Counted from the first letter of the stretch, positions 7,245-61,520 are shown. The stretch is 61,520 bases of DNA from Patescibacteria group bacterium (GCA_036266555.1 DATAMW010000030.1:1-61520); one strand, 5' to 3'. Notes: generated by a model from the sequence alone, not told the origin. Made by a program: numbers and translations.

Positions 7245-8336
7245 ATGGCAAAAGAAAAAAAAGCTCCCAAAACTCTGGCTGCTGCCTCTACCTCAGATAA
7301 AGGCCGCGCCGGTGCAATCGATAATGCAATCGATCAAATTCGCGACAAATTTGGTGATGGCAGTATTATGAAAATTTCCGATCAACATAAGTTAAATGTC
7401 GCTGCTACTCCAACTGGTAGTATTAGTTTGGATATGGCGCTTGGTGTTGGAGGAATCCCTCAAGGCCGTATTATAGAAATTTATGGCCCAGAAAGTTCTG
7501 GAAAAACAACGTTAACTTTGCACATGATTGCTGAAGCGCAAAAGCGTGGCGGTGTTGCTGCGTTCATCGATGCAGAACATGCCTTAGACCCAGATTATGC
7601 TAAACGTATTGGTGTGAATTTGGAAGACTTGTTAATCTCTCAACCAGATAGCGGTGAACAAGCTTTGGATATTACCGAAACTTTGGTACGCAGTAATGCG
7701 TTGGATCTAATAGTAGTAGATTCTGTGGCTGCCTTAACCCCGCGTGCAGAAATCGAAGGTGAAATGGGTGCCTCCCATATGGGTTTGCAAGCGCGCTTAA
7801 TGTCACAGGCATTGCGTAAACTTACTGCAATTATTTCCAAGTCGAACACAACAGTAATTTTCATCAACCAGATTCGTATGAAAATTGGCGTGATGTTCGG
7901 TAACCCGGAAACTACTACTGGTGGTAACGCGTTAAAGTTCTACGCATCAATCCGAATCGAAATCCGCCGCAGTGCGCAAATTAAAGATGGTGATAAAATC
8001 ATTGGTAACCGCACTAAAGCGAAAGTAGTAAAGAACAAAGTGGCGCCGCCATTTAAAGTGGCTGAATTTGATATTATGTACAACGAAGGTATTTCCGCAG
8101 CAGGCGATGTGCTGGACACAGGTTTGCTGATGGAAGTAATCTCAAAATCTGGAAACTCTTATTCCTTTGGTGATGTGAAGCTGGGTGTTGGCCGCGAAAC
8201 CGCCAAAACATTCTTAAAAGAAAACAAAGACATTTTCGAACAAGTTGATAAAGCCCTGCGCGAAAAGCTTGATTCCGGCGGCGGCATTCCTGCTAAGCCC
8301 ATGGAAGCCAGCGACGAAGAAGATGACGAAGAATAG
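7245..8336 (+). CDS. recA: Recombinase RecA
   Basis: Full-length RecA-like sequence: Walker [47 protein letters not shown]; acidic C-terminal tail. Confidence 0.97.
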
Positions 8337-8346
8337 TTTTTAAAAT

Positions 8347-8374
8347 AAAAGCCCTGAGACGGGCTTTTATTTTT
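8347..8374 (+). terminator. Intrinsic terminator after recA
   Basis: AAAAGCCC-tgagac-GGGCTTTT followed by ATTTTT. Confidence 0.7.
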
Positions 8375-8378
8375 CCTC

Positions 8379-8384
8379 TATACT
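8379..8384 (+). promoter_or_regulatory. -10 box (TATACT) 6 nt upstream of the ATG (leaderless-type start)
   Basis: TATACT at 8379-8384, ATG at 8391, no SD possible in between. Confidence 0.45.
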
Positions 8385-8390
8385 ATATAT

Positions 8391-10658
8391 ATGCTAAAGA
8401 AAATTTTAGACAAATTAACTGGTAGCGGCGAGGGCAAAATCGGCGTTGCCCCTGACCAGCTGTATTGCAGTGTGGATTTAGAGTTCACCGGTTTTGACCC
8501 ATCAAAAGACCAAATCCTAGAAATTGGATTTGCGTTTTTCCGCATGTCCGAAAAAGGTGCGGAAATTACTGAGCAGTGGTCGCAGGTGTTTAAGTCATCG
8601 ATTGAAGTACATCCAAAGATTTTAGGTCTCACTGGGATTACTCAAGCAGAACTTGATGCCGCCCCAGACTTTAACGAGCACCGTGAATTTTTACAGGAAA
8701 AGTTGGGCAACGCGATTATCGTGGGGCACAATCCAGTTATGGATGTAAAGTTTTTGGAAGCGTATGGTTTAAAGCTGTCCGGAAAAATTGTTGATACCCT
8801 CGAGTTGGTGCAATTTATTTTGCCAACGCATCACAGTTATAACTTAGAAAACTTGGTGCACTATTTTGGCGTGAAGCATCATAATGCGCATCGTGCTTTA
8901 GGTGATGCAATTTCTACAGTGGAAGTACTGGAAAATTTAGTCCGCGTATACAATGCGTTTTCACCTGAGTTGAAAAACGAATTGTTGGCCGTGGCAAACC
9001 GCGGTGATTTTTTGTGGAAAAATTTATTCGCAATAGAGTTAGATAAAAAAGACATTGAGCAAAATGATTCGTTAGCACATAGCGGCGTTGCTACAAATAT
9101 AGAACCTTTGCAGCTTAGCGAAGGCTTAGTTACGATTGATAACACTTCAGACAATCATGCTGCGCGCGTAGCCTTAGGCTTAAAAGAAAAAAAATCACCA
9201 GCTGTGTTAGCGGTTGAATCATCTGCAACAGTAATGAAGTTGTGGCAAGACGGATTAGTACATGGTGTGTTTAAAACCGATGACACATTTTCCAAAGAAG
9301 CATTTGAAAAGTTTTTACAAACTGCATCAACAAACGAAGAGTTACGTTTCTGTTTAAAAATAATTGTGTGGCTACATACTAACTGGCAAACAGAAGTTGT
9401 GTTTGATTTGAACATTTCTTTTTTTGGCGGACAGTTTAGAAGTTCTATCGTTGGGGGTACCCCGCGCATTGGCGACGAACTAATTCTCTGTGTTGATTAC
9501 ACAACGTTACAAACAGAAAACTCGAGTTTGAAAAACAGAAATTTAGTAATTGTCGATATCCAAAATTTTGAAAAATTTATGAGTACTGGTTTTGGCACGC
9601 GCTTAAGTTGGAGCAGTGTGCTTTACTCTTTGAAATTAGTTTACAATCCTGAAACAGATTTTGGTGAAGTGAAAATTAAGGATGAAGTGTTGTCTGCCCT
9701 GGCCGGAGCAGATCTGTTTTTTGGATTAGTGTACATGCTGCTGCATCAAACTTTCCCAAGCAACCAATATGCCACAGTCGAAGAATTGGAAAATAACCAA
9801 CCGCACATTCTCAAGAGACTGCAAACTGCTGCGGAAACTTTAAAGAACAAACTGCAAGCCGTGCAAGATAAAACTCAAGCTACAGATTTAACCAGAACCA
9901 TTGGTTTGCTCGAGACATTTTTTCATCAGACAGAAGGCCGAGTGAAGTGGGTGACTATTGATGAGCGCAACTTGTCCTTCCATGACCAGCCTATCGACAT
10001 AGCTGCGAGTGTGCAAAAAGTCATCGAAGGCTTCTCGCATATAGCATTTACAGAAACTATTGCGCAACCAATATTACTTTCTTACTTAGTCGACCGTCTC
10101 GGGTTACGTACAGAGATATCCGAGTTTATTGATATTAATGAACCAAAGCTACCTCGCAACCTAAATGTTGTAGCTACAGAACAAACCTTAAATAGTGCAG
10201 AGCTGTATCAAGAAGTAATTGGTTCTCCTCTACCATTAGTAGTAATTTTTCCCGACTTAATCAGTGTGAAGAATTTTTACAATGATCACTATTCAGAAAT
10301 TAAAGAAAAAGCCGCACTTTTTGCGCAAGGATACTCTGGCGGCGGTAACAAAATGTTCCGCAACTTTAGTATTAAAGAAAATAGCATGTTGTTAGTCACT
10401 GCAGACTTCATGGCTAAGCAAAATTATAAAATTTCTGCGCAAACAGTAATATTTACAGCGCAACCAGGTGTGGAAAAAGAACATCCATACACTTCGGCAA
10501 TCTTAAAACACTGGGGAGATAAGCATTCAGACTTAATCTCCGCTTTTCAAGCTGCAAAAATAGTTTCTGCACTAAAAAAATTAAAATTATCGCACGGAGT
10601 GTTAGTAAAAATGTACAATGTGTCAGAAAATAATATTTTTGTGGATAACAGTCGTTGA
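8391..10658 (+). CDS. DnaQ-type 3'-5' exonuclease fused to a DinG-like (apparently motif-degenerate) helicase-like region
   Basis: N-terminal DEDDh motifs: SVDLEFTGFD, VGHNPVMDVKFL, HRALGDA. The remaining ~550 aa has the size and layout of Firmicute-type DinG, but I see no GxGKT/S Walker A or DEAH box. Confidence 0.6.
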   Translation: MLKKILDKLTGSGEGKIGVAPDQLYCSVDLEFTGFDPSKDQILEIGFAFFRMSEKGAEITEQWSQVFKSSIEVHPKILGLTGITQAELDAAPDFNEHREFLQEKLGNAIIVGHNPVMDVKFLEAYGLKLSGKIVDTLELVQFILPTHHSYNLENLVHYFGVKHHNAHRALGDAISTVEVLENLVRVYNAFSPELKNELLAVANRGDFLWKNLFAIELDKKDIEQNDSLAHSGVATNIEPLQLSEGLVTIDNTSDNHAARVALGLKEKKSPAVLAVESSATVMKLWQDGLVHGVFKTDDTFSKEAFEKFLQTASTNEELRFCLKIIVWLHTNWQTEVVFDLNISFFGGQFRSSIVGGTPRIGDELILCVDYTTLQTENSSLKNRNLVIVDIQNFEKFMSTGFGTRLSWSSVLYSLKLVYNPETDFGEVKIKDEVLSALAGADLFFGLVYMLLHQTFPSNQYATVEELENNQPHILKRLQTAAETLKNKLQAVQDKTQATDLTRTIGLLETFFHQTEGRVKWVTIDERNLSFHDQPIDIAASVQKVIEGFSHIAFTETIAQPILLSYLVDRLGLRTEISEFIDINEPKLPRNLNVVATEQTLNSAELYQEVIGSPLPLVVIFPDLISVKNFYNDHYSEIKEKAALFAQGYSGGGNKMFRNFSIKENSMLLVTADFMAKQNYKISAQTVIFTAQPGVEKEHPYTSAILKHWGDKHSDLISAFQAAKIVSALKKLKLSHGVLVKMYNVSENNIFVDNSR

Positions 10659-10683
10659 CAAAAGCAAAAATTTATGATAACAT
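10655..10683 (+). promoter_or_regulatory. Sigma70-type promoter (TTGACA-17-TAACAT) overlapping the stop codon of the preceding gene
   Basis: -35 TTGACA at 10655-10660, 17-nt spacer, -10 TAACAT at 10678-10683. It faces an ORF-free region. Confidence 0.45.
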
Positions 10684-10689
10684 ATGTAT

Positions 10690-11206
10690 GTAAGTTAATT
10701 AGCTCCTTGAAAACAAAATAAATATTGCAACTGAACCGAGGGGATCTGCGCTTGAGGTCTAGAGACTCAATTGAGCGTAGCTTTCCTTCTTACTTCTCGT
10801 CATAGCCTATTCTAATCTAGGCTGATTGAAAACAAAAATAAAAATGTAGGTTCTTCGATTGCCTTACAATCGACAAAAATTTTCTTAAAACAAAAATCAA
10901 AAAAGAGCAAAAAAGTTTAGGTCTAACGACCACAAGAGGAGTTAGGAGTGCAGTTTGCAATTGATTAGAATGTAGACATATCTTTCAACAAGTGGTTGAA
11001 AGTCACTTAAGATGATGAAATGTTATCTAGTGCCAAAGGTCTAGGATCTCATAGGATGAGGTCCTGCAGCTTTGGCGCTGAATAGCTCAAGTCTTGAGTT
11101 AGCGTCACAACTGGCCTGTTCATTTATATAATAAGGGGCCCTAGTTGGGGCGCTTTTTGATTTTTAAGGTTAGTTTTTATCACAATGCCAAGCGCATTGT
11201 TTTTTA
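10690..11206 (+). ncRNA. Candidate structured non-coding RNA(s), family unidentified
   Basis: ~590-nt gap with no ORF of 60 aa or more on either strand. Hairpins read directly: AGCCTA..TAGGCT (10804-10824), TCGATTG..CAATCGA (10855-10873), CTTTCAAC..GTTGAAAG (10982-11002), and GCCAAAG[GGATCTCAT-agg-ATGAGGTCC]CTTTGGC (11032-11076). Bounded by a promoter upstream and a strong terminator at 11182-11206. Confidence 0.4.
11182..11206 (+). terminator. Intrinsic terminator
   Basis: ACAATGC-caagc-GCATTGT followed by T6. Confidence 0.7.
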
Positions 11207-11254
11207 TTACAAAATTGCTATAGTATATATAGAGAAGAAATTTAACAAAACTTT

Positions 11255-11560
11255 ATGTTATCAAAAGAATTTATAGAAGAGATGCGCGCTAAACTGTTGG
11301 CGGAAAAGGAATTGCTGACTACAGATGCAGCTGGTTTAGACGAGCACACCGAAATTGGCCGCGAGTCTGATGAAAATGCACAAGAAGTTGAATTAGATGA
11401 TGTGAATGCAGACATGCGCAGCCGCATGAAAGGTGATTTAGAAAAAATTGAGAAAGCTTTATCAAAAATTGATGATGGTACTTACGGTACAGACGACGAA
11501 GGTAAAGAAATTTCTGAAGAACGATTACGCGTTATCCCTTGGGCTGATCAAGCAATTTAG
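11255..11560 (+). CDS. DksA/TraR-family-like protein lacking the C4 zinc-finger cysteines
   Basis: Coiled-coil N-terminal part. The C-terminal IDDGTYGTDDEGKEISEERLRVIPWADQ parallels the GTYGxCxxCGxxIxxxRLxAxPxAxxC motif of TraR/DksA proteins, with every Cys replaced. Sits directly upstream of lspA. Confidence 0.5.
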   Translation: MLSKEFIEEMRAKLLAEKELLTTDAAGLDEHTEIGRESDENAQEVELDDVNADMRSRMKGDLEKIEKALSKIDDGTYGTDDEGKEISEERLRVIPWADQAI

Positions 11561-11565
11561 TTTTT

Positions 11566-12039
11566 GTGTTCAACAAAGTTTCTAAATTTAATTTTTGGTT
11601 ACCTTTAGTAATTTTATTTATTGGAATCGATCAAGCCACAAAATGGTTAGCAATACATTTTGGCTGGTCGATTTTTTTTAATTCACAATTTGCATTTAGT
11701 CTACCTGTCCCACAAGTTGTGATGTATTTAATTTACGTTGTAGTGTTAGTGGGTATGACTGTGTATGTTTACCGAACGTGGCACAGATTTTCAAACATTC
11801 AAATTTTAGCTTGGGCATTTGTCTACGCTGGGGGACTGTCGAACATTGGTGAGCGCATTGCACTTGGTTACGTGCGAGACTTTATTTCCATTTCATCTGG
11901 CACTTTAAATGTTGCAGACTTTTTTATTATCATTGGTTTGGTTTTGTTGTTAGTGAGTAGCCGATACACAAAGATGAACGAAGATTCAGGCGAGCACAGT
12001 ACTGAAGCACCGCCAGAAAACTTGAACAAAACTTTATAA
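11566..12039 (+). CDS. lspA: Lipoprotein signal peptidase (signal peptidase II)
   Basis: GTG start, four TM segments, conserved GGLSNIGERIALGYVRDFI and NVADFFIIIG blocks containing the catalytic Asp residues. Confidence 0.9.
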   Translation: MFNKVSKFNFWLPLVILFIGIDQATKWLAIHFGWSIFFNSQFAFSLPVPQVVMYLIYVVVLVGMTVYVYRTWHRFSNIQILAWAFVYAGGLSNIGERIALGYVRDFISISSGTLNVADFFIIIGLVLLLVSSRYTKMNEDSGEHSTEAPPENLNKTL

Positions 12040-12082
12040 TTTCTTTACGATAGTTTTATCTGCGGTTTGATATTCTGTACGC

Positions 12083-13633
12083 ATGTCAGTACAAAAAATC
12101 ATGACCGCTACTTTAGTGGGAATCAATGCCGCGCTTGTCGAAGTGGAGGCCGACGTTAGTAATGGTTTGCCTGCCACAATTATGGTGGGCTTGCCAGACA
12201 CCGCAGTGCAGGAAAGTCGGGAGCGCGTGCGTTCAGCGATAAAACATTCTGGGTTTTTGTATCCGCAAACGCGTGTGTCTTTGAACTTGGCTCCGGGTGG
12301 CTTGCCGAAAGTGGGCACACATTTTGATGTGCCAATTGCTGTGGCAATAATGCTGGCCAATGGCCTGAAAATTCGCACGCGCGCAGATGTCTTGGAAAAA
12401 CAATTGTTCGTGGGCGAGCTCTCGCTTGATGGTTCGGTTAAGGCCACGCCCGGGGTGTTAGCCATGACTCAAGCTGCTCGCGACCATGGTTTTCATTCTG
12501 TGTTTGTCCCAGCAGAGAATGCTGCTATGGCAGCGCTAGTCAATGAAATCAAGGTGTTTCCAGTCATGAGCCTAGAACAATTGTTGAATCATGTTATTGG
12601 CAGTGAATTAATTGAGCCGTACATTTCTTCTAACCTCAGCCCTGGCTTTGCCAACGCAACGCCAGCGCGCCACCACGATGCAGAAATTGATTTTGCAAAT
12701 ATTGCTGGCCAGCAATATGCCAAACGCGCATTGGAAATTGCAGCAGCTGGTGGTCACAACATTCTGATGACTGGTCCGCCTGGTAGTGGCAAAACTATGT
12801 TGGCCAAAGCCTTGCCGGGAATTTTGCCGTTGCTCGCGCCGGAAGAAGTTTTAGAACTAACAAAAATCTACAACAGCTCGGGTTTGATGAAAGCCGGAAT
12901 TATCGAGCAACGGCCGGTGCGCTCGCCTCACCACACAGCATCAGCCATCGCGCTAATTGGTGGCGGCGCAGTCCCACGCCCAGGCGAAGTAACGCTCGCG
13001 CACCACGGCGTGTTGTTTTTAGACGAGTTGCGTGAATTTTCGAGAAGTGCGCTGGAAGTATTGCGCCAACCATTGGAAGACAATGTCATAACTATTACGC
13101 GGCTGCGAAATTCGTATAGCTTTCCAGCGAGCTTCATTTTAGTGGCTGCAAAAAATCCGTGTCCGTGCGGAAACTATGGTCAAACAAATTTAGAATGTGT
13201 TTGCGCACCAGCCAACATGCAGCGTTACAGAAAAAAATTATCCGGACCACTTTTAGACAGAATCGATTTGCACATCAATGTACCACGTTTGTCTTACAAA
13301 GATTTCACAAGCACGCAAACAAAAAACGAATCTTCAGCCGTAGTCCAACAACGAGTCACTGCAGCGCGCACTAAACAAACCTCAAGGTTCAATGCACCAA
13401 AAACTAATTCCGAAATGTCGCCAACAGAATTAAAAAAATTCTGCGCCATAGATTCCGCAAGCAATAATCTCCTTGAACAAGCTGCAAATAAATATTTGCT
13501 GTCTGGTCGGAGCATCCACAGAGTGTTAAAAGTGGCCAGAACCATCGCCGATCTTGCAAACAGCGAAAACATCAACATTGATCATTTAGCAGAAAGTCTG
13601 CAATATCGATTGCGAGAGGAGCCAACGGCGTAG
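12083..13633 (+). CDS. comM: YifB/ComM family Mg-chelatase-like ATPase
   Basis: N-terminal Lon-protease-like domain (VEADVSNGLPATIMVGLPDTAVQESRERV), AAA+ Walker A MTGPPGSGKTML, Walker B VLFLDEL, and the zinc-ribbon-like CPCGNYG..C.C insertion. Confidence 0.9.
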   Translation: MSVQKIMTATLVGINAALVEVEADVSNGLPATIMVGLPDTAVQESRERVRSAIKHSGFLYPQTRVSLNLAPGGLPKVGTHFDVPIAVAIMLANGLKIRTRADVLEKQLFVGELSLDGSVKATPGVLAMTQAARDHGFHSVFVPAENAAMAALVNEIKVFPVMSLEQLLNHVIGSELIEPYISSNLSPGFANATPARHHDAEIDFANIAGQQYAKRALEIAAAGGHNILMTGPPGSGKTMLAKALPGILPLLAPEEVLELTKIYNSSGLMKAGIIEQRPVRSPHHTASAIALIGGGAVPRPGEVTLAHHGVLFLDELREFSRSALEVLRQPLEDNVITITRLRNSYSFPASFILVAAKNPCPCGNYGQTNLECVCAPANMQRYRKKLSGPLLDRIDLHINVPRLSYKDFTSTQTKNESSAVVQQRVTAARTKQTSRFNAPKTNSEMSPTELKKFCAIDSASNNLLEQAANKYLLSGRSIHRVLKVARTIADLANSENINIDHLAESLQYRLREEPTA

Positions 13634-14570: not shown

Positions 14571-15878
14571 ATGAAAAAATATTTTAATAAAATCAGTAAA
14601 GCTTCTGTCTTGTTAGCAATTGCTACTTTGCCATTGCTAGCTTTGGGTTGTGGTGGTCCTTCTGCACCTAACTCTGGTCCAGTGACAATCAAAATTTGGA
14701 AGCCGTTTGTAGATTCAGACAAAATGCAAACTATCATGTCTGAGTATCAAGCGAAACACACGAACGTCACTTTTGAATATACGAAAAAAAATATTGATAA
14801 CTACGAACCAGATTTACTAAACGCATTAGCAGCTGGTACTGGCCCGGATATTTATTCCATCAACAACACATGGGTGCCACGCTACATGGATAAAATTACC
14901 CCTGCGCCTGACAAAGTGTTTACAGTGAAAGATTACAAAGAAACTTTTGTTGATGCCATGGCATCGGATTTAATTAAAGACAACAAGATTTACGGCACAG
15001 CCATGTGGGTAGATTCGCTTGGGCTTTACTACAACAAGGATCTAATGGGAACTGCAGGAATTGCAGTGCCGCCGAAAACTTGGAATCAATTAGCGGAAGA
15101 CTCTCGCAAAATTACTCGCCAAGATGCCACTGGCTACTTTAGCCGCAGCGGTGTAGCAATAGGCACAAACAGCAATGTTAATAGGGGTGTGGACGTTATC
15201 TATTTGCTTATGCTGCAAGCTGGCGTAGTGCCATGGACAGCAGACGGTGCATCTCCGCAGTTTGCCAACACTATTACTAAAAATGGCAACAGTGTTGCCG
15301 CTGGTCAAGACGCAGTAAATTTTTACACATCTTTTGCAAACCCAACCAGCGCTAACTACACCTGGAATGCCAACAGCGACTACTCTATAGATGCATTTGC
15401 AAACGGTCGCGCTGCATTTTTGTACGGCTACTCACACGCCCGCGCCACAATTGACAGCAAAGCACCAAACTTGAATTACGATGTTGCGCCAGTGCCACAA
15501 AATAATTTAGATGATCCAACAGTCAACTACTCAAACTATTTTGCAGAAGTAGTAAGCAAGCAAAGCAAGAACACAGCATGGGCTTGGGACTTCTTAAAGT
15601 TTGCGACCAGCAAAGATTCATTGGACAAATATTATAAACAAGACAAGGAACCATCTTCACGCCGCGACTTAATTGAACTGCAAGCAAGTGATGAACAGAT
15701 CGGCGTGTTCGCTCATGCTAACTTAACAGGTAAGACTTTTTACAAAGCTGATGAAACTAAGTTCGATGCAATTATCGGCGACATGATTGATAATATTATT
15801 TTACGAGGTCAAACAGTAGAGCAATCTTTGAACAGAGCACAGTCACAGGCGAGTACGCTGTCCTTGCTGCGTAATTAA
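14571..15878 (+). CDS. ABC-transporter substrate-binding lipoprotein (family 1, sugar-type), with no adjacent permease or ATPase
   Basis: Signal peptide with a lipobox-like LLALGC. MalE-like blocks (GPDIYSINNTWVPRYMD, YGTAMWVDSLGLYYNKDL). No ABC membrane or ATPase genes are adjacent. Confidence 0.75.
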   Translation: MKKYFNKISKASVLLAIATLPLLALGCGGPSAPNSGPVTIKIWKPFVDSDKMQTIMSEYQAKHTNVTFEYTKKNIDNYEPDLLNALAAGTGPDIYSINNTWVPRYMDKITPAPDKVFTVKDYKETFVDAMASDLIKDNKIYGTAMWVDSLGLYYNKDLMGTAGIAVPPKTWNQLAEDSRKITRQDATGYFSRSGVAIGTNSNVNRGVDVIYLLMLQAGVVPWTADGASPQFANTITKNGNSVAAGQDAVNFYTSFANPTSANYTWNANSDYSIDAFANGRAAFLYGYSHARATIDSKAPNLNYDVAPVPQNNLDDPTVNYSNYFAEVVSKQSKNTAWAWDFLKFATSKDSLDKYYKQDKEPSSRRDLIELQASDEQIGVFAHANLTGKTFYKADETKFDAIIGDMIDNIILRGQTVEQSLNRAQSQASTLSLLRN

Positions 15879-15886: not shown

Positions 15887-16387
15887 ATGACAACTGAAAC
15901 GAAAACAAAAACTAAACAATACAATTTTGCCCCAAAAATATTTGGTGCTTTAGTCGGGTTAATAGTTATTGCTGCGGTAATCATTATTGCCACTCATGCA
16001 CCGCACGCATTAGCTCAGTCTGCCCCGGCCAATGGCGATGCCGGCGGTTTTGTCCCGTGCGGCAACGAAGCCACTAACCCCTGCCAGATCGGGCATTTAT
16101 TTTCCACTTTTGTGGTGATCGTGAACTACTTAATTGCGATGGCTGGATTCATTGCGGTAATCGCCATAGTTTATGCCGGTTTTCTCATGGTCTACTCTCA
16201 AGGCGAAGAACGACTACGTGAGGCAAAAGGGAGATTGTCTGGCGCGGTAATGGGGCTGGTTTTAGTAGCAGCTGCTTTTGTACTGATTAACGCGTTGTTC
16301 ACTGGTAGTTTAAGCATTGGTGTAAAACAAGGTGGGGACGTACTGTCTAGCCCACTAGAATATATCAAAAACGGCCCAGGAAATTAA
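15887..16387 (+). CDS. TrbC/VirB2-like (T4SS-pilin-like) membrane protein, paralog P1
   Basis: Signal/TM segment, a Cys pair (CGNEATNPC), then the two-helix module VNYLIAMAGFIAVIAIVYAGFLMVYSQGEERLREAKGRLSGAVMGLVLVAAAFVLINALF shared with P2-P7. Confidence 0.6.
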   Translation: MTTETKTKTKQYNFAPKIFGALVGLIVIAAVIIIATHAPHALAQSAPANGDAGGFVPCGNEATNPCQIGHLFSTFVVIVNYLIAMAGFIAVIAIVYAGFLMVYSQGEERLREAKGRLSGAVMGLVLVAAAFVLINALFTGSLSIGVKQGGDVLSSPLEYIKNGPGN

Positions 16388-16397
16388 TTAATATTTT

Positions 16398-16769
16398 ATG
16401 AATAATTTAATTGCATTGGAGCCATTGCCACCAAGGAATACAAACACCACTCCAAAACCGCCTGCTAATACAAACGCTAATGCCAACGCGAACACGACGC
16501 AGGTGGTAATTCCACAAATTACTAATCCATTTGGCAAAGATGCAGCTACTGTTCCTGGTATTGCCAACCGCACTATTAATGTATTGCTGGCCTTAATTGT
16601 GATTGCGGCAGTGGTTGTGATTATTATTTCCGGTTTTCGCATGATTACTGGCGGCAGCAATCCAGAACAACTTAAAACTGCTAAGCGCGGCATTGCTTGG
16701 GCAATCATCGGCATCTTGGTAGCCTTTATGTCGTTCGTTATTGTGCAAATTGTTCAGAAACTTCTATGA
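16398..16769 (+). CDS. TrbC/VirB2-like membrane protein, paralog P2
   Basis: N/T/A-rich N-terminus (NTNANANANT), then the module LLALIVIAAVVVIIISGFRMITGGSNPEQLKTAKRGIAWAIIGILVAFMSFVIVQIVQKLL. Confidence 0.6.
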   Translation: MNNLIALEPLPPRNTNTTPKPPANTNANANANTTQVVIPQITNPFGKDAATVPGIANRTINVLLALIVIAAVVVIIISGFRMITGGSNPEQLKTAKRGIAWAIIGILVAFMSFVIVQIVQKLL

Positions 16770-17920
16770 TCCAAAAATTTAAAACAATTTTGTTTGTCTC
16801 GTTTTTGCTTACACTTCTAGTGCCAGTTTTTAGTAAGCCTCTGGCAGCACAAGCTGATGTTGCATGCACAGCAGAGATAACCTTTGTTCAAAAAACAGCC
16901 AGTGGACAGGTGTATAACCATCCAAGTGGTAATAGTATCCAAATTGCTGACGGTGAAAGCTATTGGCTGCACTATAAAATTCACGCTACTGGCAAAAATG
17001 AGCCTTGTTTCGGAACTTACTATTACCGATTGGGCCAGGATGGGACTAAGGTGCTTCATTCTGCGAGTACTACAATCGCAGTAGATGACACCTATCCTTT
17101 AGATAGCGTCCTTAATCCACCTAAGCCAGGGAGTATAACTTTTGATATTCTTATTTCCCAGTCTCCTGAATTTCGTGGACTGGCGGATAGTGATGCTACA
17201 GAAATTAATTTTGTAGCAGGCAATAATACGCCTCCAACACCTTCTTCTGATCCATATCAGCCACAAAATGTGACGGTATGTAACCTGGGAAGTACTACGG
17301 CTACTATTTGTTGGACTACTAACAGTGAGTCTAACTCTGAAGTGGTTTATGGTACATCGGCGCAAACTTTAGACTCTGATAGCAACAAGCCGAATTTTAA
17401 AAGCGGCACAGCGTTTAATTTAAAAACTCATTCAATTGCCCTGACCCGTTTGACTGCGGCCACTGCGTATAAATTTATTGCTCGGAGTAGTCCGAATGCA
17501 CAAACCACTTCTACAACAAGTAGTGAAATGACTTTTACCACCAAGAACGCAGATGGCACTGGGGGGAGTAGTAACACGAATGCAAACTCAAATACCGGCA
17601 ACCCGAACTCGAATATCAACACTAATGTTGGTGTGAGTTTGGGAAACTTAGACGAACACATTGGCAGTTTCTTTAATCCTCTTACCAAAGATACTTTACC
17701 AGAACTGCTCGCCACAATTTTACGAATTTTGTTTGCGCTCATTGGCACAGTGGCTGTGATTATAATTATCATTGCTGGGTTCCGTATGGTGCTGGCTAGT
17801 GGTAACCAAACAGAATTGACCAAAGCCAAAGCAGCAATTACTTGGGCCGTGATCGGCCTAGTGATAGCGCTCATGGCATTTAGCATTGTGGCGATTATCC
17901 AAAAACTCATTCAAGGCTAG
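16766..17920 (+). CDS. Large TrbC/VirB2-like paralog P3 with an FN3-like ectodomain
   Basis: Start set at ATG 16766 (ATGA overlap with the P2 stop; signal peptide MIQKFKTILFVSFLLTLLVPVFSKPLAAQA). FN3-like segment PQNVTVCNLGSTTATICWTTNSESNSEVVYGTS...YKFIARS, an N-rich linker, then the module ILFALIGTVAVIIIIIAGFRMVLASGNQTELTKAKAAITWAVIGLVIALMAFSIVAIIQKLIQG. Confidence 0.6.
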   Translation: MIQKFKTILFVSFLLTLLVPVFSKPLAAQADVACTAEITFVQKTASGQVYNHPSGNSIQIADGESYWLHYKIHATGKNEPCFGTYYYRLGQDGTKVLHSASTTIAVDDTYPLDSVLNPPKPGSITFDILISQSPEFRGLADSDATEINFVAGNNTPPTPSSDPYQPQNVTVCNLGSTTATICWTTNSESNSEVVYGTSAQTLDSDSNKPNFKSGTAFNLKTHSIALTRLTAATAYKFIARSSPNAQTTSTTSSEMTFTTKNADGTGGSSNTNANSNTGNPNSNINTNVGVSLGNLDEHIGSFFNPLTKDTLPELLATILRILFALIGTVAVIIIIIAGFRMVLASGNQTELTKAKAAITWAVIGLVIALMAFSIVAIIQKLIQG

Positions 17921-17943
17921 TTAAAGTTTTAATAAATCAAAAA

Positions 17944-18360
17944 ATGATAAAATCTTTTCAAAAAACTTTCGCACTATTTTTCACAGCCCTCGCGCTTTGC
18001 ACGAGCCTCCTCGCACCAATCACCGCATATGCCGCAACCGACAACAAAGCTTGCACAGATTTAGAAAATCAAATTACTAACAGCGGCTTTAATGTTAAAG
18101 ATCAGTTGCCAGTGTATTGTACAACTGGATCAATTTACACTAAATTTTTAAACGGCGCGCTTTACGCAGTGGGGATTGTGGCTGTAATAGCCATTGTCTA
18201 CGGCGGCTATTTGTATATGACAGCACAATCAAACGCAGAACAGAGCAAACGGGCGCGTAATATTTTAACGTGGGCAGTACTCGGCCTAATTGTAGTAATT
18301 GTTGCAGCCTTGCTGGTAAACGTTGTTATCAACCTGCTTGTTGAAAACCGGTTTGTGTAA
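17944..18360 (+). CDS. TrbC/VirB2-like membrane protein, paralog P4
   Basis: Signal peptide (..ITAYA), a Cys pair (KACTD...VYCTTG), and the module LYAVGIVAVIAIVYGGYLYMTAQSNAEQSKRARNILTWAVLGLIVVIVAALLVNVVINLL. Confidence 0.6.
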   Translation: MIKSFQKTFALFFTALALCTSLLAPITAYAATDNKACTDLENQITNSGFNVKDQLPVYCTTGSIYTKFLNGALYAVGIVAVIAIVYGGYLYMTAQSNAEQSKRARNILTWAVLGLIVVIVAALLVNVVINLLVENRFV

Positions 18361-18469
18361 TTCCCTGGATATAGTAGAATATAAGTACGTTACATTTAGA
18401 TAAGAACCTGTTCGGAATCAGCTCTATGTTAGCCAGCCGATCCTGAACAGCTTCATCCTCATTCGAAAG

Positions 18470-18904
18470 GTGGTGAAAAAATTGAAACAAACTCTAAAAA
18501 AATTTAGTTGGTTAAATATCGCTCAGATGGTGTTCATGCTATTCTTGGTAACAGCTCCTATTACTGTTCCTGCTGTAGCTCACGCTGGCTTAGTTGATAC
18601 TTTTGTAAACAATTGTCCAGCTGATACTGGCGTGCGTTGTTCAGAAGGCAGCATTGCTTCCATCTTCCGTCTTATAATCAACTGGGCATTGGCAATTGCG
18701 TTTATCGCAGCTGTTATCATGTTGATTTACGGTGGTTTCCTTTACATCACGTCTGCAGGAAACACTGATAACGCTACAAAAGGCAAAACAGCTATTGTTA
18801 ACGCCTTAGTCGGTATTGTAATCATCGTACTTTCTTACATTATTGTTCAAATCGTGTACAGATTCGTATCTGGTTCTGGCTCCGGTGGAATTACTGGACC
18901 ATAA
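18470..18904 (+). CDS. TrbC/VirB2-like membrane protein, paralog P5
   Basis: GTG start after an SD-like GAAAGGTGG. Signal peptide, a Cys pair (NNCPADTGVRC), and the module INWALAIAFIAAVIMLIYGGFLYITSAGNTDNATKGKTAIVNALVGIVIIVLSYIIVQIVYRFV. Confidence 0.6.
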   Translation: MVKKLKQTLKKFSWLNIAQMVFMLFLVTAPITVPAVAHAGLVDTFVNNCPADTGVRCSEGSIASIFRLIINWALAIAFIAAVIMLIYGGFLYITSAGNTDNATKGKTAIVNALVGIVIIVLSYIIVQIVYRFVSGSGSGGITGP

Positions 18905-19039
18905 TTGTTTTCCCGCATTTAAGGTTAGCCTGATGTGCGGGATAGCTCTGGGAACAAAACTAAAACTACAAATGCACAAGTTCGTCGCAGTTTTATTTCC
19001 AGAGTTATTTATCAAAAATTGATTAAGACAATTAAAACA

Positions 19040-19447
19040 ATGAAACAAAAAATTATTTTAAGCTTAGCTGGGATGTTCGTTGCTATCATGGCCATGTTCG
19101 CTTTTGCTCCAAGCTTTGCAACTGTTAGCGCACAAGGCACAGGCTCTGGATGTACAACTAACTGTGTGGGCAGTGGTTTAAATGATATTGCACAAGCTTT
19201 CCCTGCAAGAACTACACACACAATTCCTGAATTGGCTAAACTAGTTATCAACTGGGCGTTGTACCTGGCTGCAATTATTGCCGTAATCTTCATCATCATT
19301 GGTGGCTTCATGTACATTACTTCTGCAGGTGACTCTGCTAAAGCAAGCAAAGGCCGCGCAACATTGGTTAATGCTTTAATTGGTTTAACCATGATCGTGC
19401 TGTCGTACTTAATTGTTCAAATCGTTTACAATTTCTTGACTACGTAG
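19040..19447 (+). CDS. TrbC/VirB2-like membrane protein, paralog P6
   Basis: Start set at ATG 19040 (MKQKIILSLAGMFVAIMAMFAFAPSFATVSA signal peptide). A Cys pair (GCTTNC) and the module INWALYLAAIIAVIFIIIGGFMYITSAGDSAKASKGRATLVNALIGLTMIVLSYLIVQIVYNFLTT. Confidence 0.6.
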   Translation: MKQKIILSLAGMFVAIMAMFAFAPSFATVSAQGTGSGCTTNCVGSGLNDIAQAFPARTTHTIPELAKLVINWALYLAAIIAVIFIIIGGFMYITSAGDSAKASKGRATLVNALIGLTMIVLSYLIVQIVYNFLTT

Positions 19448-19460
19448 TTCTATATAATTT

Positions 19461-20306
19461 GTGAGCATGATTTTTAGCAAAACATCTTTTATCTCCAAGT
19501 TTACTCTCGCCATGCTTGCTCTTGTGAGCATGGCGTTCTTTGTTGTGCCTGCAGACAACGCGCAGGCGCAGTCGGGTGGCAGAGGAACTCGAGTAGTATT
19601 CTGTTTTAACACAGTCACGAAAAACGTCACTTATCCTTCTTCTGTAGACAGCTGTCCACCAGATGCTAATATTATTTCTAAATCTTTTCCTAAAACTGAT
19701 AAAGGCTATTGTGTGACCGGCGCTAGTGCTCCTTATGATGCAGAGGAACCTCTACTAACTGCTGCAGGCGAACCTAAAGTAGCGAATGGCCAATGTCTTT
19801 CTGATGACAAACCTGGTGACCCGGCTCATTCTAGTGTGCCGTTCGGCCCATTTGTAGCATTCCCATCATCTGTTCTCCCTGCGCCAACTCCGACACCAAC
19901 CCCAACCCCAACGCCCACACCTACTCCTACTGTTCCTCCTGGTGGAAGTGGTGGTCCAGGCGGTGGCGGTCCAGGCAATTACACTCAAGGGGATTGTGAA
20001 GACAATTTCCACAAAGTTGGCCCATTGTGTGTGCCGAATAATCCTTTCAACAACAACTCCATTGCTGGGGGCGATGCCACAGCCAGCAGTATTGCTGTGA
20101 GAATCATCAAAATTTTGCTTTACTTTGGGGCAATTGTTGCAGTAATCATGGCCATGATTGGCGGTTACTACGTGATGACTGCAGCTGGCAATGCGGCTCA
20201 AGCAGCTAGTGGCCGTAAAACCCTAACTAACGCAGTAATTGGCTTGGCGATTGTAGTTTTGGCTTATGTCATAATTCAAGCAGTTATCAGTTTCCTAACC
20301 ACATAA
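19461..20306 (+). CDS. Large TrbC/VirB2-like paralog P7 with a Cys-rich ectodomain and a (PT)8 linker
   Basis: Signal peptide, a ~130-aa Cys-containing domain, a PTPTPTPTPTPTPTPT linker, a G-rich stretch, a second Cys pair, then the module LLYFGAIVAVIMAMIGGYYVMTAAGNAAQAASGRKTLTNAVIGLAIVVLAYVIIQAVISFLTT. Confidence 0.6.
   Translation: MSMIFSKTSFISKFTLAMLALVSMAFFVVPADNAQAQSGGRGTRVVFCFNTVTKNVTYPSSVDSCPPDANIISKSFPKTDKGYCVTGASAPYDAEEPLLTAAGEPKVANGQCLSDDKPGDPAHSSVPFGPFVAFPSSVLPAPTPTPTPTPTPTPTPTVPPGGSGGPGGGGPGNYTQGDCEDNFHKVGPLCVPNNPFNNNSIAGGDATASSIAVRIIKILLYFGAIVAVIMAMIGGYYVMTAAGNAAQAASGRKTLTNAVIGLAIVVLAYVIIQAVISFLTT
19884..19931 (+). repeat. In-frame (Pro-Thr)x8 dipeptide repeat within P7
   Basis: cca act ccg aca cca acc cca acc cca acg ccc aca cct act cct act, read directly. 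Confidence 0.9.
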
Positions 20307-20413: not shown

Positions 20414-20500
20414 GCCGGAGTGGCGAAATTGGCAGACGCACCAGCCTTAGGAGCTGGCGGGGGCAACCCTGTGGAGGTTCAAGTCCTCTCTCCGGCACCA
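20414..20500 (+). tRNA. tRNA-Leu (anticodon UAG), CCA encoded
   Basis: Acceptor stem GCCGGAG/CTCCGGC, D-arm GTGGCGAAATTGGCAGAC, anticodon stem-loop CCAGC-CTTAGGA-GCTGG, long variable arm, T-arm GGAGGTTCAAGTCCTCT, terminal ACCA. Confidence 0.9.
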
Positions 20501-20536: not shown

Positions 20537-22438
20537 ATGGGTAAGATTATCAAAAATATTATTCTCGTATTAATTGGTTTTTTAATTATCTCAGTGATTG
20601 TAGCTGCGTTTACAACCAGCAAAGAAGTTAAGTCAGTGCCGCTGTCCGAAGTATCAAGTTTAATTAAAGATGATAAAGTCGAAAGCATTGAAGTTAACTC
20701 TGACTCTATCCTAACAAAGTTAAAAGATAGCGATAGCAAATTAAAATCTTCTATCGGCGCACGCACAGATATTCCAAAATATTTTGTAGACTCAGGTGTT
20801 CCGTCCGACAAGATTGCAAACATTAAAATTGAATTCAGCACTCCAGGCACTGCATCACAAGTTGCAGGAGCAATTTTGCCATTCCTAATTCCGTTTGTGT
20901 TAATTGCGTTGTTCATTTATTTCTTGATGCGCCAAGTGCAAGGTTCAAACAATCGCGCCTTAACTTTTGGACAAAGTTCTGTAAAGTTAAATGACGAACA
21001 AAAGAATAAAGTTCGCTTTGACGATGTTGCTGGTGCCAAAGAAGCGAAAGAAGAGCTCTCCGAAATTGTGCAATTTTTAAAATTCCCACAAAAGTTTTTA
21101 GCTTTAGGTGCAAAGATTCCTAAAGGTGTGTTGTTGCTTGGTAGCCCTGGTGTTGGTAAAACAATGTTAGCTCGTGCTGTGGCCGGAGAAGCGAACGTAC
21201 CGTTCTTCCACATTTCTGGTTCTGAATTCGTAGAAATGTTTGTGGGTGTGGGTGCATCCCGCGTGCGCGATTTATTTAAAAAAGCCAAACGCAATGCGCC
21301 GTGTATTGTATTCATCGACGAAATTGATGCAGTGGGACGACAGCGCGGTGCTGGAGTAGGTGGCGGTCACGATGAACGTGAACAAACTCTAAATCAAATC
21401 TTAGTTGAAATGGATGGTTTTGAAACTGATACAAATGTAATTGTAGTAGCAGCAACTAACCGTCCAGATGTATTGGACCCAGCTTTGCTTCGTCCTGGTC
21501 GTTTTGACCGCCAAGTAATTTTGGACTTACCAGACATTAATGACCGCGAAGCGATTCTAAAAATTCACAGCAAGAACAAACCATTTGCAACAGACGTGAA
21601 TTTGCGTAAAATTGCCGAACGCACTCCAGGTTTCTCTGGTGCAGACTTAGCTAACCTTGTTAACGAAGGTGCAATTTTAGCAGCTCGTACAGACAAGAAA
21701 CAAATTGATGGCGATGACTTAAAGGAAGCGATTGAAAAAATTGTAGTTGGTCCTTCTCGCAAGAGCCACTTAATGTCTGATTCAGAAAAGAAAGTTACTG
21801 CTTACCATGAAGGTGGACACGCTTTGGTTGGCTCGGTGTTAGCTGAATCTGACCCGGTTCATAAAGTAACTATTTTGTCTCGTGGTCGCGCTTTGGGTTA
21901 CACCATGAAGCTGCCAACAGAAGATAAGCACATGAGCACTAAAGGCGCGTTTCTCGACGAAATCGCTGCTTTGGTTGGTGGTTATGCTGCTGAAAAACTA
22001 ATTTTTGGCCGATTAACAACTGGCGCGAGCAATGACTTAAAAGTTGCGACTAACATGGCGCGTAAATTAATCACTCAATACGGAATGAGCGATGCGTTTG
22101 GCCCTGTGGTTCTAGGTGAGCCACATGAAAACGTGTTCTTAGGTCGGGATATGGGTGAGCAAAAAAATTACAGTGAAGATACAGCTCAAAAAATTGATGC
22201 AGAAGTGCGCCGCATTATGTCCGAAGGTGAAGCGCGGGCTACTCAAGTGTTAACTCAGTATCGAACTTACCTTGATACCATTGCAGACCGCTTGTTAAAA
22301 GAAGAAACTTTGGAACAAGAAGCTTTTACTGAAATTGTAAAAGATATTATTCCAGCGAATAAAAAGAAACTTCCCGATTTTGATAACGTTGCACCAGACA
22401 ATACTGCAGACGGTATAGACGTAGCAGCAGTGGCTTAA
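20537..22438 (+). CDS. ftsH: ATP-dependent zinc metalloprotease FtsH
   Basis: Two N-terminal TM helices, AAA+ Walker [15 protein letters not shown], Walker [14 protein letters not shown], zinc motif HEGGHAL. Confidence 0.97.
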
Positions 22439-22494: not shown

Positions 22495-23400
22495 ATGAGT
22501 TACAGAGAGGTTTTATCCCAAGCCTATAACTTAACTATCCGCAACCCGTTGATGTGGCTGTTTGGACTAGTTATGTTGGGGGGATTCAACCTCTCTTTAA
22601 TTAATTTTTTTACTTTGGTGCCAGGCGGCGAATGGAAAACTTGGCCACTGGTTGCCGAAACTATCTTTGGTTCACACGCTGCAAGCTTGGTAGTTCTTGT
22701 ACTCGTTGTTGGTGCAGCGTTCGTTGTTTTGAATTTGATAAAAATTCTGTTCATTGTGGTGGCGCATAGTTTTTTGCATCATACTTCAGGCGACGCCGGT
22801 AGCACGCCGCAGATTGAATGTGATTTGTGTGTGAAAGTTAAAGCTCAAGCTACGAATGATGAACAACTACCATACTTTTCGTGGTTGGTTAAATGCATTA
22901 CATCCAGCGCAATTACTATTGCACTTACAGTTGGGATCACTTTAGCAGCTAACTCAGTTTTGAGTGCTTCTGGCTATGACACCCCCGCAGCAGTGATCAT
23001 CAATTTATTATTTGTAGCTGCAGTGACTTGCATAATTGGCACGTGGAATGTGTTCACTAATTATTTTATTGTGCTGCATGGGTTGAGTTTCCAGAATGCA
23101 TCAGCTGCGGCAATTGATTTACTCGTTAAACACAGCAAGCGCGTGGCAGAGTTTGTGATTTTGCTCTCAGTGATTTATTCATTCTCTGTAGTGGTTGGCA
23201 ATGTGTTTATCCAAACTTGGCATTTTAGTATGCTGGCTCACGCGTTGCCTCTAGTTCGCCTCGCGTTGATGGCCGGTCTGGCGTTGTGGTTTGCAATTAA
23301 CAACTCTTTCTTTAACTTTGCGTTTTTGATTTTCTTTGATCGCACAGTAAAAGCCACGCCAGCCGCAGAAAAATCCGCTCAAGCAGTGGCGCAGGTGTAA
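22495..23400 (+). CDS. Hypothetical polytopic membrane protein
   Basis: 301-aa ORF with about six or seven hydrophobic segments; no recognisable family motif. Confidence 0.55.
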   Translation: MSYREVLSQAYNLTIRNPLMWLFGLVMLGGFNLSLINFFTLVPGGEWKTWPLVAETIFGSHAASLVVLVLVVGAAFVVLNLIKILFIVVAHSFLHHTSGDAGSTPQIECDLCVKVKAQATNDEQLPYFSWLVKCITSSAITIALTVGITLAANSVLSASGYDTPAAVIINLLFVAAVTCIIGTWNVFTNYFIVLHGLSFQNASAAAIDLLVKHSKRVAEFVILLSVIYSFSVVVGNVFIQTWHFSMLAHALPLVRLALMAGLALWFAINNSFFNFAFLIFFDRTVKATPAAEKSAQAVAQV

Positions 23401-27915: not shown

Positions 27916-28395
27916 ATGAACAATAATAAGATGATCACGCTAGGCGTGTTAGTCCTAGCCCTTATAGTAGCAGCGGTTTTGTATTTTAATATGCAAAATA
28001 ATAAAAAAGATGTTGCTATGAACACAAATGTTCCTGAAAAAACTAAGGAAATTGTGAAAACTGATGTAGAAACTAACAAATCTCCGGAAAAATTCCCAAC
28101 TGACATTCCAATCGAATCTGGCGCTACAATTACCCAAAACTACAATGCGACTGCTCCAGATGGCCGTTTCCAAGCCACTCGCGCATTCACTAGTAAGAAA
28201 ACATTGGGCGAAAACTACGCACTTTACAAAGAATGGATGAATTCTAATGGTTGGACCATTGCTTCATCAGTTGATCAGCCAACCTATAAAATGGTTTCTG
28301 GCACTAAAGGCAAGCAAACTCTCCAAGCCTCAATTAGCGAAAATAGCTCTACTAAAGAAGTTACAGTTACCTTATCTTTGACAATTCTCCCTTAA
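27916..28395 (+). CDS. Small N-terminally membrane-anchored protein, family member S1 (unknown function)
   Basis: One N-terminal TM helix, then a ~110-aa domain with the block PEKFPTDIPIESGATITQNYNATAPDGRFQATRAF shared with the ORFs at 33586 and 34067. Confidence 0.7.
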   Translation: MNNNKMITLGVLVLALIVAAVLYFNMQNNKKDVAMNTNVPEKTKEIVKTDVETNKSPEKFPTDIPIESGATITQNYNATAPDGRFQATRAFTSKKTLGENYALYKEWMNSNGWTIASSVDQPTYKMVSGTKGKQTLQASISENSSTKEVTVTLSLTILP

Positions 28396-28411
28396 TTTAG
28401 CCTCTTTTTTA

Positions 28412-28440
28412 AAACTCCCTTGTTTGGGAGTTTTATTTTA
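28412..28440 (+). terminator. Intrinsic terminator after S1
   Basis: AAAACTCCC-ttgttt-GGGAGTTTT followed by ATTTT. Confidence 0.65.
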
Positions 28441-28461
28441 GCTTAATGTGGGGCATTTTAC

Positions 28462-28490
28462 TTGATTTTTCCGTGCATTCGTGCTATAAT
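28462..28490 (+). promoter_or_regulatory. Sigma70-type promoter (TTGATT-17-TATAAT) for giant protein G1
   Basis: -35 at 28462-28467, 17-nt spacer, -10 at 28485-28490. Confidence 0.55.
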
Positions 28491-28531
28491 TAAGTTAATA
28501 AAAAGTCAGAGTTCGAAACAAAAACAAATAA

Positions 28532-33529: not shown

Positions 33530-33531
33530 TG

Positions 33532-33554
33532 TGATATGCTTAATATAAGCATAT
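33532..33554 (+). terminator. Hairpin after G1 (weak terminator)
   Basis: GATATGCTT-aatat-AAGCATATC (9-bp AT-rich stem) followed by TTTAAAT. Confidence 0.4.
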
Positions 33555-33585
33555 CTTTAAATAGAGTAGAAATTAAAATAAACAT

Positions 33586-34062: not shown

Positions 34063-34066
34063 TATT

Positions 34067-34555: not shown

Positions 34556-34564
34556 TAAAAGCAT

Positions 34565-55105: not shown

Positions 55106-55117
55106 TTATTTCAAAGT

Positions 55118-61089: not shown

Positions 61090-61520
<431 letters not shown>

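Follow-up and report, generated by a model that had tools for sequence, protein, structure and literature searches.

In this study, we show that seven consecutive genes, lying head to tail on the plus strand of a 61,520-nucleotide stretch of DNA from a Patescibacteria group bacterium (GCA_036266555.1 DATAMW010000030.1:1-61520; the whole stretch is called the window below), encode proteins, P1 to P7, that by profile score all belong to the T4SS_pilin family (PF18895) and end in the same two-helix membrane module. The array (15887-20306 in the open reading frame (ORF) listing) is kept position by position within a housekeeping gene block of related genomes. We consider it moderately probable that P1 to P7 form a fixed hetero-set of Sec-exported, hairpin-anchored pilin-like subunits, with P5 as the major subunit and the others as minor subunits bearing host-contact ectodomains, assembled by a monoderm-type type IV secretion system (T4SS) encoded elsewhere. 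The kind of system is already known, and the present locus is a well-conserved new example of it; what is new here is the synteny of the array in a housekeeping block, the position-wise orthology, the expression signals at P5, and the hypervariable ectodomains with the tandem fn3-like domains of P3.

Membership of PF18895 is firm for all seven proteins on profile evidence, since each passes the gathering cutoff of 26.6 bits (28.4-40.2 bits, E 1.7e-6 to 3.6e-10), always with its C-terminal part; the same family is also precomputed for orthologues of the array proteins. A first-pass annotation of this DNA had described seven tandem ORFs with a common C-terminal two-helix module, and this is confirmed. 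The aligned module is about 72 amino acids (aa) long and consists of a first helix, a (G/A/S)G(F/Y)xx(I/V/M)..(N/D/E) turn, a K/R-containing loop and an IVQIV-like second helix. A six-frame hidden Markov model scan of the window recovered exactly seven copies, so that a chance likeness between hydrophobic segments is not the explanation. Among NCBIfam families, NF045849 matched all seven best; its cutoff of 40 bits is passed by P4 (42.1 bits), the other six falling short (22.7-37.2 bits). The prepilin-peptidase site of class III signal peptides, G|F(T/S)LxE, was absent from the first 60 residues of all seven proteins in a regular-expression search, no Pfam N_methyl match was obtained for them, and none of the seven contains an LPXTG motif.

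Upstream of the module, the N-terminal parts of P1 to P7 are mutually unalignable and range from 49 to 308 aa, which agrees with the earlier description of them as unrelated, and full-length paralogue identity is 23-31%. The Cys pair that had been noticed just upstream of the module in P1, P4, P5, P6 and P7 is indeed present, and it is kept in the orthologues of P1, P4, P5 and P7 in 6/6 genomes and of P6 in 4/6; the mature N-terminal part of P7 carries six Cys residues. By hydropathy, six of the seven proteins have a signal-like N-terminal segment and A-x-A-type sites, the exception being P2, which has only two hydrophobic segments. P2 lacks a signal peptide and ectodomain here and in the two closest relatives (L003 and L004), where a 49-aa N/T/P-rich tail is left, and its orthologues in L005-L008 possess signal peptides and measure 151-268 aa. 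Comparison with orthologues and with public gene calls refined the gene starts. For P3 the start is ATG 16766, as in the JGI gene call, the 407-aa TTG form being an over-extension; the start of P5 is most likely TTG 18482 (140 aa, as in the NCBI protein; GTG 18470 would give 144 aa); the short form of P6 (start 19040) is backed by orthologues; and the start of P7 at 19467 corresponds to the 279-aa JGI gene call (GTG 19461 would give 281 aa).

In each module a net-positive loop connects two strongly hydrophobic helices, from which it follows that both ends are predicted to lie outside with the loop in the cytoplasm. This both-ends-out topology is that of VirB2, as established by work on TraA and VirB2. 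The hairpin layout proposed at first pass holds, with signal peptide, ectodomain and hairpin with basic loop found in 6/7 proteins. In the AlphaFold2 model built from the P5 family alignment, the hairpin helices span residues 63-93 and 99-134 with a predicted local distance difference test score (pLDDT) around 90, and across the P5 and P3 models the hairpins score 80-94. In the P3 model (mean pLDDT 78) a signal helix is followed by a pair of beta-sandwich domains, of which the second exceeds 90, and then by a disordered N/T-rich linker and the hairpin. Residues ~166-259 of P3 (384-aa numbering; 189-282 of the 407-aa ORF that was scanned) match Pur_ac_phosph_N/fn3, and Foldseek relates the ectodomain to tandem fibronectin type III pairs (E about 3e-7); most P3 homologues match only the C-terminal ~28%. 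Elsewhere in the family, PKD-repeat ectodomains are fused to the pilin module in two loci, L009 (13152-14303, 383 aa) and L017 (11074-15588, 1504 aa), with the module first and the PKD repeats after it, and more PKD-repeat proteins adjoin. The position of these repeats, C-terminal to the module, implies that the C-terminus would also be extracellular, which fits a hairpin with both termini outside.

The array was found in the same surroundings in eight related genomes. When the GTDB species genomes were scanned with P3, four metagenome-assembled genomes (MAGs; L003-L006) matched, in each case only over linker and module, and three of them are Candidatus Saccharibacteria; the closest relatives of the source genome are Candidatus Saccharibacteria MAGs. 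The syntenic relatives comprise L003, L005 and L006, reached through P3, and four more reached through P5 homologues (L007, L008, L019 and L020), among them the complete 943,189-bp genome CP064996.1 and a 787,846-bp JGI contig; L004 breaks off after P4. The block reads ComM, a GalU-like protein, a solute-binding protein (SBP), the seven pilin-module genes, tRNA-Leu, ftsH, a polytopic membrane protein, tRNA-Val, RNase III and SMC. The SBP gene stands directly before the array in L003, L005, L006, L007, L008, L019 and L020, and the same tRNA-Leu follows it in L003, L007, L008, L019 and L020. In L019 (CAZVXT010000001.1, 7694-12619) eight genes lie between SBP and ftsH, with two pilin-module genes of ~275 aa at the P7 end, and the copy number of the array is for this reason not strictly fixed.

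Comparison of the modules among six genomes indicates that each array position is an ancient orthologue that has been conserved individually. Between-genome best hits fell at the same array position in 194/210 comparisons, and all 16 exceptions involve the most distant genome. Mean same-position module identity runs from 55% (P2) to 84% (P5), against about 35% between positions, and the P1 orthologue modules are 52-85% identical. The large excess of same-position over between-position identity argues for an old, fixed set of distinct paralogues rather than one that has been recently amplified or is converting; no sign of recent duplication or gene conversion was seen among the array paralogues (~35% for paralogues vs 55-84% for orthologues). 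The ectodomains, on the other hand, are hypervariable: the N-terminal parts diverge far faster than the neighbouring housekeeping proteins, with identities of 22-33% for P3 and 31-42% for P7 vs 78-94% for FtsH and 66-91% for SMC. A search for P5 homologues seeded from a distant orthologue (P0115) recovered nothing beyond the tight P5 clade already found, with no link to the pilin arrays of the saccharibacterial strains ML1 and TM7x discussed below.

P5 is the most conserved of the paralogues and the sole array gene with a strong, conserved Shine-Dalgarno site. Its modules are 69-97% identical across genomes (85-97% to the closer ones), and its N-terminal part is constant at 59 aa (58 aa in the most distant genome, L008); its nearest paralogue is P6, with 57% module identity. 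The Shine-Dalgarno site GAAAGGTGGTGA has a duplex energy with the anti-Shine-Dalgarno sequence of -11.5 kcal/mol, which ranks second among 56 window ORFs (median -1.85), the other six array genes lying between -4.3 and +0.5 kcal/mol, and most genes of the source genome have no Shine-Dalgarno sequence. Because of its extreme conservation and its strong conserved Shine-Dalgarno site, P5 is probably the abundant, major subunit. The -10-like box TATAGTAGAATATAAG in the spacer between P4 and P5 may be an internal promoter for P5; a generic promoter and terminator scan, in which promoters scored no better than in shuffled sequence, found nothing convincing in the array and did not call TATAGTAGAATATAAG. 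Other very strong Shine-Dalgarno sites in the window belong to the ORFs at 2648-3133 (-), 5562-5942 and 42213-42740 (-) and to a 1536-aa protein at 50495.

Table 1. Genes and sequence elements of the pilin-module array and its immediate flanks; positions count from the first nucleotide of the window.
Feature	Position	Strand	Description	Support
Solute-binding lipoprotein (SBP_bac_1)	14571..15878	+	Lipobox LALGC	Pfam SBP_bac_1 E 4.8e-27
P1	15887..16387	+	166 aa; signal-peptide-like N-terminus, short ectodomain and Cys pair, module nt 16091-16303, 27-aa C-terminal tail	PF18895 31.5 bits
P2	16398..16769	+	123 aa; without signal peptide, N/T/P-rich 49-aa N-tail, module nt 16545-16760	PF18895 37.9 bits
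P3	16766..17920	+	384 aa; signal peptide, two fn3-like beta-sandwich domains, disordered N/T-rich linker, module nt 17690-17905	PF18895 40.2 bits
P4	17944..18360	+	138 aa; signal peptide, Cys pair, module nt 18118-18333	PF18895 40.1 bits
TATAGTAGAATATAAG	18370..18385	+	-10-like box, P4-P5 spacer, right after P4 stop codon	Conserved in six-genome alignment
GAAAGGTGGTGA	18465..18476	+	Shine-Dalgarno site, ends 5 nt before P5 TTG start	Conserved in six genomes
P5	18482..18904	+	140 aa; signal peptide, conserved Cys pair, module nt 18647-18862, Gly/Ser tail	PF18895 38.3 bits
P6	19040..19447	+	135 aa; signal peptide, Cys pair, module nt 19217-19432	PF18895 34.5 bits
P7	19467..20306	+	279 aa; signal peptide, Cys-rich ectodomain, (PT)n and Gly-rich linker, module nt 20076-20291	PF18895 28.4 bits
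tRNA-Leu(TAG)	20414..20500	+	Conserved downstream boundary of array	ARAGORN and Rfam
ftsH	20537-22438		After tRNA-Leu	ORF listing and Pfam

We propose that each protein would be exported by Sec, in six of the seven cases by way of a cleavable signal peptide, and held in the cytoplasmic membrane by its C-terminal two-helix hairpin, the short basic loop of which would be cytoplasmic and both ends of which, including the variable N-terminal ectodomain, would face outward. The seven paralogues would make up a non-redundant, anciently diverged set. P5, which is short, nearly invariant and endowed with strong translation signals, would be the major structural subunit, and P1-P4, P6 and P7 would be minor subunits whose fast-evolving ectodomains (fn3-like in P3, Cys-rich in P7) may touch the surface of the host bacterium. 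Assembly would be carried out by an MPF-FATA-like T4SS (VirB4, VirB6, PrgI, TrsD), as in S. epibionticum ML1, whose homologous array is essential for epibiotic growth according to the tables of Wang et al. (2023; PMC10633639); in the present lineage such a T4SS would sit elsewhere on the chromosome.

Several findings weigh against this proposal. The first-pass annotation had recorded no T4SS genes in these 61 kb, and Pfam scans over essentially all ORFs of the 61.5-kb window bear this out: they found no VirB4, VirB6, VirD4, PrgI or relaxase, nor any AAA_10 or CagE-type protein, so that the array is not linked to virB4 (within ~20 coding sequences) here. Thus no T4SS gene was found from -16 kb to +41 kb of the array in the window, nor within 10 kb on either side of it in the annotated flanks of L007, L008, L019 and L020. 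The kinship with classical pilins is also faint. The earlier suggestion had named the T4SS_pilin and TrbC/VirB2 families together; in the profile searches the former stood for all seven proteins but the latter did not, as the PF04956 cutoff of 27.9 bits was not reached by P2 (21.7 bits, E 2.3e-4), P3 (16.9) or P4 (14.3) and the other four gave no match. When aligned by hhalign with six annotated VirB2/TrbC proteins from conjugative plasmids, each encoded next to virB1 and virB3, the module profile gave a probability of 19.6% (E 0.0012, 58 columns) and the P5 family profile 1.8%. The module profile had no match among PDB sequences at E up to 10, and Foldseek of the P5 model against PDB returned no pilin (best E 2); with a two-helix fold such a search is not informative. 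VirB2-type pilins do not usually have ectodomains of 200-300 aa, the existence of polypeptides in which 2-17 modules are fused is hard to square with subunit-by-subunit growth of a pilus, and the case for P5 as major subunit is one of conservation and translation signals only. We know of no monoderm T4SS that builds a pilus. A T4SS pilus has not yet been seen in any Patescibacterium (PMC12857230). A tblastn search with P2 of 72,556 plasmids gave no match. Homology of the module to classical VirB2 nevertheless seems plausible to us.

The family at large is very broad. The profile of the seven modules has 82,612 representative homologues at E up to 1e-3, of which 15,067 score 1e-10 or better. 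Its top matches are single polypeptides with 2-17 tandem modules behind a single N-terminal signal peptide, such as P0176 (820 aa), P0177 (552 aa), P0181 (1775 aa) and P0192 (283 aa), with loci L009 and L010 among their sources. The contig of L010, which encodes the 17-module protein, is probably archaeal because it bears ribosomal protein L39e. No VirB4 was found within 10 kb at L009 or L010, nor at L017, which holds an array around a weak P3 homologue (P0172). The fused modules suggest, in the manner of a Rosetta stone, that modules pack side by side in one assembly, and they also keep open a role as anchor or scaffold that is independent of a T4SS.

It is this last role that leads to the explanation, possible but to our mind unlikely, that the array is a display system in which the PF18895 hairpin is a both-ends-out, self-associating anchor for surface adhesins or receptors, perhaps together with the adjacent SBP lipoprotein, with no filament or secretion machine involved. 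The lack of T4SS genes near the array in the window and in the related loci with annotated flanks, the sub-threshold link to VirB2, the fusion of the same module to PKD-repeat ectodomains of up to 1504 aa, the occurrence of 2-17 tandem modules per polypeptide far from virB4 and even on an apparently archaeal contig, and the sheer size of the family are all in its favour. A common anchor with varied ectodomains had been one of two functions suggested at first pass, and that part of the suggestion agrees with the hypervariability of the N-terminal parts, with the fn3 domains in P3 and with the PKD fusions elsewhere; it falters on P4 and P5, which offer almost no ectodomain for display although P5 is the best conserved paralogue, as would better suit a structural subunit. 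Moreover, the homologous arrays of ML1 and TM7x sit inside a T4SS cluster, both array and cluster being essential in ML1 as far as its tables go (PMC10633639), and pilin genes lie near virB4 in 58% of assemblies (PMC12102498). Arrays far from virB4, conservation in a housekeeping block and the 2-17-module fusions leave room for a variant reading centred on P5, which we hold to be doubtful: an obligate, non-interchangeable hetero-oligomeric envelope structure around P5, with the PF18895 hairpin as a self-assembling both-ends-out module that displays adhesin ectodomains (fn3, PKD) and is able to work without a T4SS.

The other function suggested at first pass, interchangeable subunits of one filament, is disfavoured. 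In this explanation the paralogues would be alternative major pilins, one at a time building the filament, and would serve host-range or antigenic variation as proposed for the Bartonella and Anaplasma arrays; the tandem, divergent paralogues (23-31% full-length identity) speak for it, and it has been suggested for Patescibacteria (PMC12102498). However, every genome examined keeps an old orthologue at each position, with sizes and Cys patterns peculiar to that position, recent duplication or gene conversion is not apparent (module identity ~35% vs 55-84%), strong translation signals occur at P5 only, and in ML1 the paralogues appear individually essential, SEML1_0016-0019 being scored so in its tables (PMC10633639), all of which makes it improbable. 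Still further from the evidence, and very improbable indeed, is a pertussis-toxin-like reading, first proposed for the TM7x array, in which the proteins would be Sec-exported effector or toxin subunits released via the T4SS. The N-terminal signal peptides, small size and array layout recall that proposal (PMC7427843), but all seven proteins terminate in a pair of strongly hydrophobic helices that are predicted to remain membrane-embedded, the proteins match PF18895 and carry no toxin or enzyme domains in Pfam or NCBIfam, and later work reinterprets such proteins as pilins (PMC12102498; PMC10633639). The hetero-set of pilin-like subunits around P5 is therefore the explanation that we retain.

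The array lies in ordinary chromosomal surroundings. The P5 protein is NCBI VHQ41_02675 (140 aa), labelled as from a 'Patescibacteria group bacterium' MAG, and JGI metagenome 3300037475 and SRR12917118 contain the same strain, with 99.99-100% nucleotide identity. Housekeeping genes identified by Pfam in the window encode FtsK (alpha and gamma domains), a RodZ-like protein, RecA, an RNase_T-type exonuclease, LspA, ComM, a GalU-like protein, RNase III, SMC, S16, TrmD, L19, RNase Y, NusA and ClpP, and the window also holds four giant surface-type proteins. FtsK was considered as a T4SS coupling protein and rejected: because it carries alpha and gamma domains, the only FtsK-type ATPase of the window is the chromosomal translocase. 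A 301-aa polytopic membrane protein directly after ftsH (22495-23400), which is syntenic in all relatives and fast-diverging (26-60% identity), was likewise rejected as VirB6, since no Pfam family matched it even at E up to 1. A genomic island at tRNA-Leu was dismissed too, as synteny is conserved and the GC content of the array equals that of its flanks. These flanks had been given as an orphan solute-binding lipoprotein on one side and tRNA-Leu and ftsH on the other, and they are so: no ABC permease or ATPase partner for the lipoprotein was found in the window. The lipoprotein gene ends 8 nt before P1 and is possibly co-transcribed with the array.

Just upstream of the array in all relatives are recA, a 755-aa RNase_T-type exonuclease gene and a comM-like Mg-chelatase gene (window 7245-13633), DNA-uptake and recombination genes that recall the reported link of T4SS with competence and recombination genes in class ABY1. 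An ORF-free gap of ~600 nt between the exonuclease and DksA-like genes (10659-11254, +) is conserved in sequence across relatives (L007 2423-3071, L008 2029-2701, L019 2599-3173, L020 2429-3043). RNAalifold predicts 113 pairs in it, 32 with compensatory changes, as well as a closing helix formed over long range and, at the end, a GC hairpin with a T-run behind it; the gap matches no Rfam family (gathering score or E up to 1) and gave no tmRNA call, and it is a candidate for a saccharibacterial structured RNA, about 450-500 nt long, that has escaped annotation. The Rfam scan of the window found only two tRNAs and the start of 16S rRNA, the 5' part of which occupies 61090-61520 and runs off the contig end, so that the ORF at 61054-61368 (-) is spurious. 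Among the giant surface-type proteins, those at 28532-33529 (1665 aa) and 34565-38305 (1246 aa, DUF11) are interleaved with three small single-transmembrane proteins of ~160 aa (27916-28395, 33586-34062, 34067-34555) that match no family, and this gene group (27916-38305) looks like a surface-adhesin module. Two further giants are adjacent at 50495-58822, one of 1536 aa with Peptidase_S74 (endosialidase chaperone), preceded by a small HTH_17-like ORF, and one of 1234 aa with Big_7, CHB_HEX_C and Fn3_assoc.

Pilin arrays have been described in several Patescibacteria. Across Saccharibacteria, a T4SS region (VirB4, VirB6, VirB2) accompanied by an array of 4-6 small Sec-signal proteins was reported by McLean et al. 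(2020; PMC7427843), and the T4SS is described as conserved throughout this group (PMC11665869; PMC7427843). In S. epibionticum ML1, the T4SS cluster SEML1_0006-0019, with its series of predicted pilins, is reported as essential (Wang et al., 2023; PMC10633639); the tables for this strain place PF18895 on at least SEML1_0014-0017, with seven occurrences in the file, and score SEML1_0016-0019 as essential, and in the same tables the pilin genes adjoin VirB6-like, PrgI and VirB4 genes and the ftsH neighbours are unrelated (PMC10633639). Quinonero-Coronel et al. (2025; PMC12102498) found VirB4 in 2,417/3,035 Patescibacteria genomes and VirB2-like pilins in 1,948 VirB4-positive assemblies, near virB4 in only 1,135 of these (58%; ~42% not near), together with 441 arrays, each of 2-11 pilin genes, spread over 383 assemblies and notably those of Microgenomatia and Saccharimonadia, with a mean identity of 25%. 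A 2025 review regards them as the first candidate pili of a monoderm T4SS, of unknown function (PMC12857230). The present seven adjacent genes form an array in the sense of PMC12102498 (at least two pilin genes in tandem or one non-pilin gene apart, in a Patescibacteria genome) and are a member of the described class, in which lack of linkage to virB4 is not unusual. In the one species tested, epibiotic growth requires both the Patescibacteria T4SS and its pilin array; to this the locus adds a lineage in which the array is parted from the machine and consists of seven (eight in L019) individually conserved paralogues, and it offers one candidate major subunit, P5, and hypervariable adhesin-like ectodomains, hence testable predictions on stoichiometry and host range.

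The arrays of this class, that is the six-gene array SEML1_0014-0019 of ML1, the 'Sec-secreted array' of N. lyticus TM7x and those of PMC12102498, resemble the present one in the PF18895 module, tandem same-strand genes, low paralogue identity (25% mean published vs 23-31% here), Sec signal peptides, a Saccharibacteria host and a chromosomal location without relaxase. The ML1 array is likened to ours by family and layout. Whereas the ML1 array abuts VirB6, PrgI and VirB4, the present one stands outside a T4SS cluster, between SBP and tRNA-Leu/ftsH in a housekeeping block, and unlike the ML1 and TM7x arrays it has seven genes, two of them encoding 200-300-aa ectodomains. The TrbC/VirB2 conjugative pilins of diderm T4SS (PF04956; Agrobacterium VirB2, RP4 TrbC, F TraA) share with the array proteins a signal peptide followed by two hydrophobic helices and a short basic loop, the small size of P4, P5 and P6, and a weak profile alignment that is in register over the whole hairpin; they differ in that the array scores below cutoff, has no adjacent virB1 or virB3, resides in a monoderm host, and includes large ectodomains and Cys pairs. 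The Mbov_0395 family of pilin-like conjugal transfer proteins from mycoplasma integrative and conjugative elements (NF045849), the best curated NCBIfam match of all seven, is part of monoderm (MPF-FATA-type) conjugation systems, the presumed origin of the Patescibacteria T4SS, but it comprises single genes in mobile elements and not a chromosomal seven-gene array.

In Bartonella and Anaplasma there are likewise several tandem virB2-like genes, which accompany a host-interaction T4SS; those copies are viewed as variable or alternative, in contrast to the ancient position-specific orthologues of the present array. Finally, an analogy may be drawn with type IV pili and the pseudopili of type II secretion. 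Their pilins are not homologous to P1 to P7, having a single N-terminal helix instead of a two-helix hairpin and a class III signal peptide that is absent here, but they too combine one abundant conserved subunit with several low-abundance subunits whose extra domains prime assembly or bind targets, which is the arrangement that we envisage for P5 and its six companions.

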